IMG/VR virus record: IMGVR_UViG_3300033406_000034
Coordinates: 1 to 30,103 of that record
Origin: a virus
Lineage: Duplodnaviria > Caudoviricetes
Direction: 5' to 3' (one strand)
Length of the DNA: 30,103 bases
Numbering within the stretch: position 1 is the stretch's first letter; every line of letters starts with the position of its first letter. The translations under genes and the position numbers were made by a program. Shown in pieces: positions 15,523 through 21,789 of the stretch. The notes under the pieces were generated by a model. That model did not search any database and was not told where the DNA came from. It worked only from the letters and a program-made list of their open reading frames with translations.

Positions 15523-16716
15523 TCACACCTCCATAGCTTCCGTCAAAGTTGAAATTAGCAATGCGCAGGCAACTTCAAACGCCACATTTACAGTGACCGC
15601 ATTGCCGGCCTGCTTGTAAAGTTGCGAATCAGAGTTTACTGCCTTGGCTTTCTCAAACAGTTCATCGGAAAACCCCTGCAGGCGCCAACACTCCTTGGGA
15701 GTTAGCCGCCGTATCCGAAAACGGGCGTGTTCCAGGGCGGCTATGCCGTGCCTGTCCTGCCCGGTAAGAGTGAACATCGGCTCATCCGGGTCTTTAATCC
15801 GCCTGCCATTCTGCCTTTTTTCTTTCCGATCCGGCGTCAGCACCGGCATCACGCAGGGAATTTTATCAAGCCGCGCAGCTTGCAGGCTCCCCGTTTCCTC
15901 CTGCTTAACGGTGGTGGTAGCGCCATGGGTTTTCTGAATAGCCATGACCGGTGCTTTATAGTCCCTCGCCTTCAGCGTCTGGCAGCAATCACTTGCTTTA
16001 TACCGGCCAATCGTCGGCTGATTTACAAAGTACAGGCCGGTTTTTGCGCCAACACCGCCCGCCTGGCTGGCCAAAGCCACGCTTACTCCAGCCGGGTCAT
16101 ACACCCGGTAGCCTTGCATCCCGCCGATAATTTGCCTAAGACCGCCACCGTTCTCTCGTCCGAAAGGTAGTATTTCTCGTCGACCGCGGCTTCCAAGATG
16201 TCCGACAGTATACACCCGCTCCCGGTTTTGCGGGACTCCATAATCTTTGGAATTGAAAATCTGCCACTGGACATCGTACCCAGCTTCGGCCAGCTCACAG
16301 AGATATTCGAGGAAATCCCATCCGGCATTGCTAGATAAAAGGCCTTTAACATTTTCGAGGATAACCCATTCGGGTTTATCTTCTTCCGCTTTGCTTTTGA
16401 GGAGGTCAACGAAGTCAAAAAACAGTCCGCTTCGTTCACCATGAAGCCCGCTTCTTCCTCCTGCAACAGAGAGGTTTTGACAAGGACTTCCCGCAGTCCA
16501 TATATCTGCTTGAGGAATGTCATCTGCTCGGAGTTTCGTGATGTCACCTCCATACCATTCTCCTTCCGTATCATACATGGCGCGGTAAGACCGCACCGCA
16601 AATTTATCGTTTTCGCAAAATCCGACGCACTTCATGCCGGCCAGTTCCAAGCCCCGGCGAAAACCGCCGATGCCGGAAAAGAAATCGATAAAAGTAAGCT
16701 GCCTTGCATCAGCCAT
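15523..16716 (-). CDS. DNA (cytosine-5) methyltransferase
   Basis: Motif I DFFSGIGG, IV GSPCQ, VI LENV, VIII QNRERVY, IX RRLTPKECWRLQGF, X YKQAGNAV. Confidence 0.95.
   Translation of the reverse strand: MADARQLTFIDFFSGIGGFRRGLELAGMKCVGFCENDKFAVRSYRAMYDTEGEWYGGDITKLRADDIPQADIWTAGSPCQNLSVAGGRSGLHGERSGLFFDFVDLLKSKAEEDKPEWVILENVKGLLSSNAGWDFLEYLCELAEAGYDVQWQIFNSKDYGVPQNRERVYTVGHLGSRGRREILPFGRENGGGLRQIIGGMQGYRVYDPAGVSVALASQAGGVGAKTGLYFVNQPTIGRYKASDCCQTLKARDYKAPVMAIQKTHGATTTVKQEETGSLQAARLDKIPCVMPVLTPDRKEKRQNGRRIKDPDEPMFTLTGQDRHGIAALEHARFRIRRLTPKECWRLQGFSDELFEKAKAVNSDSQLYKQAGNAVTVNVAFEVACALLISTLTEAMEV
16083..16553 (-). CDS. Nested +1-frame ORF inside the C5-MTase (M.EcoHK31I beta-like polypeptide), 156 aa
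   Basis: AAGGAG 6 nt before ATG at 16553; the frame stays open across motifs IV-VIII; encodes WPKLGTMSSG...CILSDILEAAVDEKYYLS. Confidence 0.65.
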   Translation of the reverse strand: MEVTSRNSEQMTFLKQIYGLREVLVKTSLLQEEEAGFMVNEADCFLTSLTSSKAKRKKINPNGLSSKMLKAFYLAMPDGISSNISVSWPKLGTMSSGRFSIPKIMESRKTGSGCILSDILEAAVDEKYYLSDERTVAVLGKLSAGCKATGCMTRLE

Positions 16717-16763
16717 GATTGTCCGCCCCTTTCAAAAACAAAAGGCACGGAACAATCCATGCC

Positions 16764-18032
16764 TTACATTCCTGTTTCTTCACTTGTATCGGCCACCGCT
16801 TTCCGGACTTCATCGTAGGGAATTCGAATCCCGTCACGCAGCAAAAAGACGCCGGATGAGTCCCCGACGGCTTCAACAAAACGGTTAACGATGACGTCCG
16901 CAAATTTCTCATCCAGTTCGATGCCGTAGCAAATCCGTCCCGTCTGCTCGCAGGCAATCAGTGTGGAGCCGCTTCCCAGAAAAGGGTCAAGCACAATGCA
17001 ATTGCTCATGCTGGAATTCTGAATCGGGTAAGCCATTAAAGCCACAGGCTTCATTGTTGGATGCTCCTTGGAAGATCTCGGTCGGTCATATTCCCAGACG
17101 GTGGTCTGCTTGCGGTCGGAGTACCACTGATGCCTGCCGCCCTTCTTCCAGCCGAACAGACACGGCTCATGTTGCCATTGGTACGGAGAGCGGCCAAGAA
17201 CCAGCGCGTTTTTCTTCCAGATGCAGCACCCGGAAAGATAAAATCCAGCATCGGCAAAGGCTTTGCGGAAGTTAACCCCCTGGGTGTCTGCGTGGAATAC
17301 ATAGATGGAAGCATCGCTTTCCATGTTCTGCTCCATATTGACGAACGCCGCGAACAGGAACTTGTAAAAGTCCGCATCCGGCATATTGTCGTTTTTAATT
17401 TTCCCGGCGGTTTCCTCCACGTTGACGTTATACGGCGGGTCGGTCACCACCAGATTGGCCTTGCCGCCATTCATGAGGGCAGTATACGTTTCCGGTAAAA
17501 CAGCGTCGCCGCAAATAAGCCGGTGCCTGCCGAGCAGCCATATGTCGCCTTTTTGTGAAATGGTCGGCTTCTTTAAAGCTGCGTCCACATCGAAATCGTC
17601 TTCCTTGATTTCCTTGTTGTGGACCTTTGAGAAAAGCTGCTCGATTTCTGGCGCTTCAAAGCCCGTAAAATCTGTATTGAAATTGGCCGTTTGCAAATCC
17701 ACGATCAGATCGGCAAGAAGCTGTTCATTCCATGCTCCCGTGATTTTATTGAGGGCAATATTGAGAGCCTTGACCTTGTTCTCGTCCCTGATTTCAACGA
17801 CTACTCATTGCACCTCGGTATATCCCATGTCTTTCAGGACAGTCAGCCGTTGGTGTCCGCCGATAACCGTCATGTCGTAGTTCACGATGATGGGTTCCAC
17901 ATAGCCAAATTCCAAAATGGAATTCTTGATCTTCTCGTATTCCTTATCCCCCGCCTTCAGCTTTTTGCGCGGGTTGTATGCCGCCGGGCGAAGATCCTCC
18001 ACCGGCAATGACTGCCATTTCATTTCACTCAT
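16764..18032 (-). pseudogene. ParB-like domain fused to a beta-class amino (N6A/N4C) DNA methyltransferase, interrupted by an in-frame TGA at 17805-17807
   Basis: YNPRK...FGYVEPII...IGGHQR (ParB-like), then YTEVQ*VVVEIRDENKVKALNIALNKITG continuing in frame into TDPPYNV, HPTMKP and VLDPFLGSGST; 423 codons in total. Confidence 0.8.
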
Positions 18033-21413: not shown

Positions 21414-21779
21414 TCAGTTATACTCTTCAAACACCCCGATTTGTATCTGTATCGCCTTTGTGATTTTCTCCATGATTTCAGTGCTCATTATAGTGCCCTT
21501 CTGCTCCAGAAGACGGTCTTTGTCGATGGCTTCCACTTGTTCGGCAAGAGCCAGGCTTCCACAGCTCAATCCAAATCCTGCGGATGCTGGAATATACACA
21601 TGGGTTGGAAGGAACCGCTTCTTATGGACTTTGGATGTCAATGGCACCACCGTGATGACTGGCGAATGCTCATTTGCCTTATTGTTGCTGACAATCACCG
21701 CCGGACGGATTCCGCTCTGTTTTCGCGTATCTATGTTCATTCCGAAATCCACATAATAAACGTCGCCTCTTCTGCACAT
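21414..21779 (-). CDS. mazF: PemK/MazF-family endoribonuclease toxin (orphan)
   Basis: RGDVYYVDF, QSGIRPAVIVSN, VVPLTS, LPTHV, LAEQV-AIDKDRL; GAGGTG RBS. Confidence 0.92.
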   Translation of the reverse strand: MCRRGDVYYVDFGMNIDTRKQSGIRPAVIVSNNKANEHSPVITVVPLTSKVHKKRFLPTHVYIPASAGFGLSCGSLALAEQVEAIDKDRLLEQKGTIMSTEIMEKITKAIQIQIGVFEEYN

Positions 21780-21789
21780 CGCATTCACC

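Follow-up and report, generated by a model that had tools for sequence, protein, structure and literature searches.

The cytosine methylase locus

The window, by which we mean the entire 30,103-nucleotide stretch of DNA that was analyzed, is a 30-kb contig of a tailed phage or prophage. It encodes a helicase, a DNA polymerase, an HNH protein, two methylases, a terminase, a portal, a capsid and a tape measure protein, all on the minus strand. One of the methylases is a C5 DNA methyltransferase, flanked by an N6/N4 methylase and by a 112-aa protein without a Pfam family. Its closest relative from a genome (L089, 96% identical) is found in an uncultured Pelosinus assembly, and the host of the phage is therefore likely a Firmicute.

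An ORF of 156 codons is nested within the C5 methylase gene, in the frame one base downstream of the methylase frame. We refer to the main-frame product as alpha and to the putative nested product as beta. The features discussed here are listed below, with motifs numbered I–X, and the target recognition region designated TRD, by the established convention for C5 methyltransferases.

15523–16716, minus strand: alpha chain, 397-aa C5 DNA methyltransferase (P0002), with motifs I–VIII, then a variable region that includes several TRD-like modules, then IX and X
15673–15711, minus strand: alpha motif IX, RRLTPKECWRLQG, in the main frame; the point of difference from M.EcoHK31I
16083–16553, minus strand: putative beta chain, nested +1-frame ORF of 156 aa (P0001); most homologues are 140–142 aa
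16125–16127, minus strand: usual beta stop site (motif VIII plus 35 codons); TCG in the window, resulting in a 14-aa extension
16128–16208, minus strand: beta 116–142, LSDILE..DEKYYLS and a helix; in frame in single-chain methylases, with predicted contact to alpha motif IX
16263–16304, minus strand: beta 84–97 hairpin (W88, G92, G97), predicted to pack on alpha 127–136 and 148–154
16480–16485, minus strand: alpha catalytic Pro-Cys (motif IV), under the beta overlap
16554–16565, minus strand: Shine-Dalgarno sequence AAGGAG (16565–16560) and 6-nt spacer AATGGT before the ATG at 16553, within alpha codons E-G-E-W

The nested ORF was originally predicted from the sequence as a 156-codon frame with a well-spaced Shine-Dalgarno sequence, and its coordinates, the AAGGAG-AATGGT-ATG arrangement and the 156-aa translation are all as described. 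The calculated pairing energy with the anti-Shine-Dalgarno sequence is –9.4 at the beta start compared with –9.6 at the start of alpha itself. The +1 frame is also open further upstream, to a TTG at 16601 that lacks a Shine-Dalgarno sequence. The segment LSDILEAAVDEKYYLS at 16208–16161 (beta 116–131) was quoted correctly, as was TVGHLGSRGRREILPF, which the main frame reads over the same bases. Beta belongs to no family in Pfam or NCBIfam and has no convincing match among PDB sequences. It matches phrog_16143, a PHROG family labelled DNA methyltransferase. Folded alone, beta has a pTM of 0.37 and no compact fold.

Alpha is a member of PF00145 (E 1e-67). It contains motifs I, IV (PC), VI (ENV), VIII, IX and X in order, and its fold matches that of a C5 methyltransferase. 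Motifs IX (RRLTPKECWRLQG) and X (YKQAGNAV) are both found in the main frame, consistent with the initial reading that alpha retains them. The alpha profile aligns to residues 13–170 and then 231–269 of M.HhaI, and the distance from motif VIII to the first TRD is 22 positions compared with 60 in M.HhaI. The alignments show alpha to be without a linker that is carried by single-chain enzymes. The first TRD-like module resembles that of M.HhaI, and the last is similar to a module of L172, a B. subtilis plasmid enzyme that is presumably SPR-like and multispecific. By analogy, alpha may recognize several target sites. In the prediction of alpha alone the overall pLDDT is 69.9, with values below 50 at residues 184–285, although variable TRD regions commonly score low regardless.

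Selection on the nested frame

The selection analysis started from 161 loci, made up of the window, 80 viral loci and 80 genome loci. A complete alpha is present in 128 of them, 14 bear an intein, and 19 were dropped because they are truncated, broken or unparsed (beta is open in all 18 of the dropped loci that are readable). The homologues are a single clade of related Firmicutes phage genes, and the tests are not phylogenetically independent.

Over the 134 overlap codons of the 128 genes there is a single +1 stop, compared with 613.6 expected from synonymous shuffles. The frame is stop-free in 127 of the 128 genes (1.4 expected), so the frequent interruptions that would have spoken against the original prediction do not occur. 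A reduced set of 24 representatives with pairwise nucleotide identities of 56–85% contains no stops in the +1 overlap, where 116.9 are expected. The depletion is absent outside of the overlap, both upstream (149 stops versus 178.8 expected) and downstream (1581 versus 1326.3), and the other shifted frame is not depleted either (1439 versus 1292.6). For the window gene by itself, 109 of 20,000 synonymous shuffles leave the +1 stretch open. The sole complete alpha of the 128 with a stop inside beta, L066, may be an inactive allele or an error.

We also compared the conservation of each beta residue with a synonymous null (p<0.01, 24 representatives); the p-values are optimistic because the genes are related. 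Conservation exceeds the null at 2 of 39 columns upstream of the beta start region, at 3 of 9, 5 of 21 and 8 of 25 columns at and after the start, and at 14 of 25 (around beta 48–72), 17 of 34 and 10 of 16 columns in the middle of beta. In the C-terminal element containing KYYLS and the helix, 17 of 19 columns are conserved beyond the null, and after the stop none of three are. The synonymous-site constraint that a dual-coding region should display is apparent as well. Relative to L089, the window gene has 6 alpha-synonymous differences in 158 overlap codons versus 35 in 186 downstream codons (3 in 54 upstream), and for L001 the counts are 4 in 109 overlap codons versus 19 in 186 downstream. 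At the sequence level, these comparisons show that the amino acids of beta are under purifying selection.

Both ends of the nested frame are also conserved in position. The start codon falls 19–26 codons ahead of motif IV in 127 of 128 genes, and the exact position of the first start varies (ATG at –21 in 77/128, at –23 in 25/128 and at –22 in 12/128). In the window beta the first ATG is followed by Met11 and Met38, and in EcoHK31I later AUGs were used. The glycine codon that forms the GGAG is GGA in 102 of 128 genes, compared with 1161 of 3823 glycine codons (30%) outside of the overlap. Among the 128 homologues the frame ends 35 codons after motif VIII in 121, at +49 in five including the window, and at +55 in two. 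The 156-aa beta of the window is thus a read-through variant, and the 121 typical genes stop 14 codons sooner (about 142 aa).

The 14 intein-bearing loci (L154–L158 and L160–L168) are nearly identical and mostly from Lachnospiraceae or Clostridia. Their intein, which has a LAGLIDADG-like domain, splits the Pro-Cys pair of motif IV and cuts off the usual start of beta from its body. The beta body is still open, and an ATG behind GGAGG is located within the 3' end of the intein, 13 codons before the catalytic Cys. This arrangement is in line with a beta whose N-terminus is dispensable and whose body is needed, with the reservation that the case represents a single lineage and that the usual sequence of the intein may yield that ATG by itself.

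Relation to single-chain methylases

A tblastn search of plasmids with the last 42 residues of beta returned 46 matches, and the seven that we fetched were chosen for matching the C-terminal element only. One of the seven is a nested gene, and the other six (L169–L174 set) encode single-chain enzymes. In all six, the element corresponding to beta 112–142 (L-x-D-x-LE..D-x-(K)-Y/F) is in frame after motif VIII, and the +1 frame is closed by 4–14 stops in each. Equivalent in-frame segments are found in the alignment rows for M.HhaI and M.Sau3AI in a published figure (PMC8936443 S2 Fig). These examples bear out the initial observation that the segment from LSDILE to KYYLS normally follows motif VIII in frame. 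The window gene has the catalytic fold and the L-x-D-x-L/LE element in common with M.HhaI, M.Sau3AI and the L169–L174 enzymes. However, the latter are one chain with a closed +1 frame. A weak, word-based search for longer proteins containing beta 100–142 found none among 13 candidates, whereas the plasmid tblastn did find such proteins.

The original prediction also held that the nested product supplies only the post-VIII element. The element itself is confirmed. However, beta residues at about 57–111 are also under selection and make the closest predicted contacts, so beta probably contributes more than the post-VIII element.

Two enzymes are of separate interest. In L173, which is Sau3AI-like, residues 229–280 of the main frame form an in-frame insert that resembles beta 80–132, hairpin included, and M.Sau3AI is a further example of such an insert. 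The match to the hairpin alone is weak (8.7 bits versus 2.0 for the best of 500 shuffles, with an unrelated shifted frame reaching 8.1). M.BatI, a short prophage C5 methylase reported to be active in E. coli, shows no clear motif IX and little of the TRD region in the alignment published with it (PMC8936443 S2 Fig). M.BatI may hide an out-of-frame second chain.

Relation to M.EcoHK31I

M.EcoHK31I is an E. coli methylase specific for YGGCCR. We obtained its sequence from an E. coli locus, L085, by means of a published primer (PMC2836561 supplement 1) that matched 81 of 5,426 E. coli genomes and no plasmids. L085 encodes a 309-aa methylase (alpha) adjoining a NotI-family endonuclease and contains a nested 176-aa +1 ORF (beta). 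Because the gene ends and the nested ORF agree, by eye, with the primers of the paper, we take L085 to be M.EcoHK31I or a near-identical allele.

The L085 beta reads NGLLLKM..W..SG..CTLSQVLE, followed far later by motif IX, which the L085 alpha lacks. The similarity to this chain that was originally proposed reflects homology: residues 57–142 of P0001 align in register and without gaps to residues 6–91 of the EcoHK31I beta, with 26% identity (over 6–90) and a family profile E of 4e-13 over 86 columns. The beta HMM scores the EcoHK31I beta at 77.5 bits and the six single-chain genes, in their +1 frames, at –3 to 29 bits, and the homology therefore exceeds that forced by alpha. As the 29 bits of the highest control show, betas resemble each other at the N-terminus in part because alpha homology forces them to.

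In both genes the second chain lies wholly inside alpha in the +1 frame, and LSQVLE or LSDILE starts eight codons after the start of motif VIII. However, there are several differences. As had been anticipated, motif IX is on beta in L085 and on alpha in the window, where alpha retains both IX and X. The window beta ends soon after the KYYLS helix, and the EcoHK31I beta starts about 56 codons later than the window beta. In addition, M.EcoHK31I adjoins a restriction endonuclease, whereas the window gene is an orphan in a phage with no endonuclease beside it. Because motif IX is absent from its beta, the window gene does not share the defining split of the M.EcoHK31I type.

According to PMC2836561, EcoHK31I alpha without the beta start codons produces no methylation, and beta supplied in trans restores methylation. 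This dependence on beta is not automatically transferable, since the window alpha keeps every numbered motif. M.EcoHK31I is presented as a rare exception in passages of two papers (PMC2836561, PMC3404938). M.AquI is also a natural two-chain C5 methyltransferase, with motifs I–VIII on alpha and the distal variable region, IX and X on beta (PMC3404938). In the window gene, by contrast, alpha retains the TRDs together with IX and X, and the nested beta is read from another frame.

Predicted structure of the complex

Three predictions of the alpha/beta complex gave scores of 0.78, 0.78 and 0.79, compared with 0.00 for the best of three controls. Of 157 solved complexes, 116 reach the mark for this score, as do 2 of 215 mismatched pairs. 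Contact agreement between runs is at least 67%, and the partner pLDDT is at least 72. Alpha has a pLDDT of 69 in the complex, which is no gain over alpha alone. Beta residues 120, 128 and 129 are predicted to contact E342 and R336 of alpha (motif IX), and beta 85–94 to contact alpha 127–136 and 148–153.

When an enzyme is split, its halves are apt to do well in this test through their likeness to solved single-chain methylases, and part of the 0.78 may therefore be memory. In particular, the contact of beta 116–130 with motif IX may be remembered from solved single-chain enzymes. The beta hairpin has no sequence match in the PDB. The model supports binding of beta by alpha, short of demonstrating it. 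Of the three possibilities originally entertained (heterodimer, regulator or frameshift isoform), it is the heterodimer that gains from the selection tests and the predicted complex.

Distribution and annotation

P0001 has matches in 219 phage and 74 plasmid records, and among the matches listed nearly all fall under genes annotated as methylase or hypothetical protein. The beta profile matches 3,388 cluster representatives at E ≤ 0.001 and 1,689 at E ≤ 1e-10, some of which will be fusions or single-chain enzymes. We checked ten loci individually: Shewanella, Methanomethylovorans and B. cereus plasmids, Arthrobacter phage Pitbull, P1 dmt, EcoHK31I, MM1, pST, Lactococcus phage 4268 and SpSL1. 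All ten encode L-x-x-I/V-LE in the +1 frame, beginning eight codons downstream of where motif VIII starts, and this fixed register suggests that the nested genes share one origin. A tree of 31 alpha cores, which has long branches, is compatible with a single origin of the split genes and also with several (three changes, p-AU 0.54). In Shewanella, P1 and EcoHK31I the start of beta lies beyond motif IV. P1 dmt and the archaeal plasmid (Methanomethylovorans) have the same layout as the window.

The nested gene was thought to represent a probably unannotated class. This does not wholly hold, as nested coding sequences are already annotated in S. pneumoniae phage MM1 (ORF14 inside ORF13, NC_003050) and in S. 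thermophilus pST, in addition to the match with phrog_16143. Both have the layout of the window, with motifs IX and X on alpha and both coding sequences annotated; the nested +1 coding sequence is 139–141 aa, follows AAGGAG and ends after LSDILE..YFLS. The window gene agrees with the MM1 type in having a +1 ORF of ~140 aa, plus its 14-aa extension, that runs from motif II/III to ~35 codons past motif VIII. We found no functional test of the nested product of MM1 or pST, which is known there by annotation.

The m5C methyltransferase gene of phage SpSL1 (cds15) also has this layout with an open +1 frame, and the nested ORF is unannotated in the record. In the available account of SpSL1 the gene is credited with methylation of the phage DNA at 102 of 113 sites, and the nested ORF is not mentioned in that text (PMC6755750). 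This indicates that the nested layout can be active from a native gene.

Searches of the open-access literature by title and start of abstract found no description or test of the short-beta class. One report (PMC11855218) deals with another situation, in which a phage methylase has an HNH insertion that is out of frame.

Two individual loci stand apart. Lactococcus phage 4268 (L088:1173–1730) has an alpha that ends just after motif VIII and an intact beta frame, with no IX or X downstream. Phage P1 dmt (L084:1986–4250) contains an unannotated +1 ORF ending in CLLSQVLE..RYFLS and a helix, in the same register.

We also considered an AquI-like continuum, in which beta naturally carries the TRD, IX and X in many relatives. 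Among the best 150 beta-profile matches, IX and X are both present in 12, IX only in seven and X only in two. Two IX/X-bearing betas were used to find 160 loci, of which two are of that type at the DNA level, 76 are window-type (belonging to other subfamilies), one is single-chain-like, 41 are other or unclassified by strict patterns, and 40 are unparsed. With 2/160 such loci the idea was dropped, and IX/X-bearing betas are mostly sporadic frameshifts.

A putative two-chain methyltransferase

We consider it probable, from the conservation of the frame and the predicted complex, that the +1 ORF is translated from its own ribosome-binding site into a small beta chain that completes a two-chain phage C5 methyltransferase with the 397-aa alpha. 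Ribosomes would start internally at 16553 on the alpha mRNA and release free beta. Residues 116–130 (LSDILE..KYYL) are predicted to pack on alpha motif IX like the in-chain linker, and the hairpin at 84–97 on alpha 127–136 and 148–154 in the catalytic domain. Alpha would supply SAM binding, catalysis, target recognition and motifs IX and X, and may be unstable or inactive alone. By analogy, the dimer would methylate phage DNA and protect it from host restriction.

It is also conceivable, although unlikely, that beta is a real alpha-binding protein but a non-essential regulator that tunes or inhibits activity or stability. Alpha has all of motifs I–X, the separate start of beta could allow its amount relative to alpha to be adjusted, and the presence of a terminator-like hairpin immediately before alpha hints that expression is tightly controlled. 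However, the most constrained part of beta is the element that is in frame in single-chain enzymes and missing from alpha, and the homologous EcoHK31I beta is required for methylation (PMC2836561).

Programmed frameshifting or transcriptional slippage into the +1 frame, giving a fusion of the alpha N-terminus to the beta C-terminus and no free beta, seems very unlikely. Such a fusion is seen in 13 of the best 150 profile matches (for example P0019–P0024), but in the examples read the junctions are at differing places, as with sporadic indels. Moreover, a start codon and GGAG precede the open frame in nearly all genes, selection begins near that start, and, according to PMC2836561, the EcoHK31I beta works in trans and relies on its own AUGs.

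That the open frame is an untranslated by-product of alpha motifs and codon bias, or an RNA-level constraint, is most improbable: alpha motifs do fix some beta residues (null conservation is 1.0 at Trp- and Met-derived columns), but single-chain homologues with the same motifs have 4–14 +1 stops, one stop was seen against 614 expected from synonymous shuffles, and the stop site itself is conserved (121/128).

Returning to the two-chain methyltransferase, its layout is a variant of the known M.EcoHK31I design that is widespread and mostly missed by annotation. This suggests that phage cytosine methylases commonly have a nested beta chain. If true, a long same-strand overlap across a catalytic center would be a good case for studies of dual coding and overprinting. 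If such a gene were synthesized with optimized codons, beta would be lost, and the enzyme could be judged inactive.

A more far-reaching scenario is doubtful, although worth stating. Beta would have been overprinted from the +1 frame of the ancient motifs III–VIII, its hairpin would bind the alpha segments that its codons encode, and it would be obligatory in thousands of phage methylases across bacterial phyla and archaea. M.EcoHK31I would be derived, and Sau3AI-type enzymes would have captured the out-of-frame sequence by duplication and frame fusion.

Other features of the window

The sequences GGCC and GCGC occur in the window at 0.61 and 0.79 of the expected frequency. We discarded this depletion as a clue to methylase specificity, palindrome avoidance being general. 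A PemK/MazF-like toxin gene lies in the replication-to-packaging region (21414–21788, minus strand), and Pfam shows no antitoxin.

The N6/N4 methylase gene upstream of the C5 methylase (about 17958 to 16764) has a ParB domain and contains an in-frame TGA at 17805–17807 on the minus strand. The TGA divides the gene into two ORFs and stands where five homologous loci encode Cys. It is due either to a nonsense mutation or to an error in sequencing.

No promoter-like site was found on the coding strand between 15000 and 18900. The four sequencing runs covered consist of contigs, including one labelled RNA that is probably DNA. Between the N6/N4 methylase and the start of the C5 methylase there is a terminator-like hairpin followed by a T-run (16742–16765, minus strand), which may limit expression of the C5 methylase.
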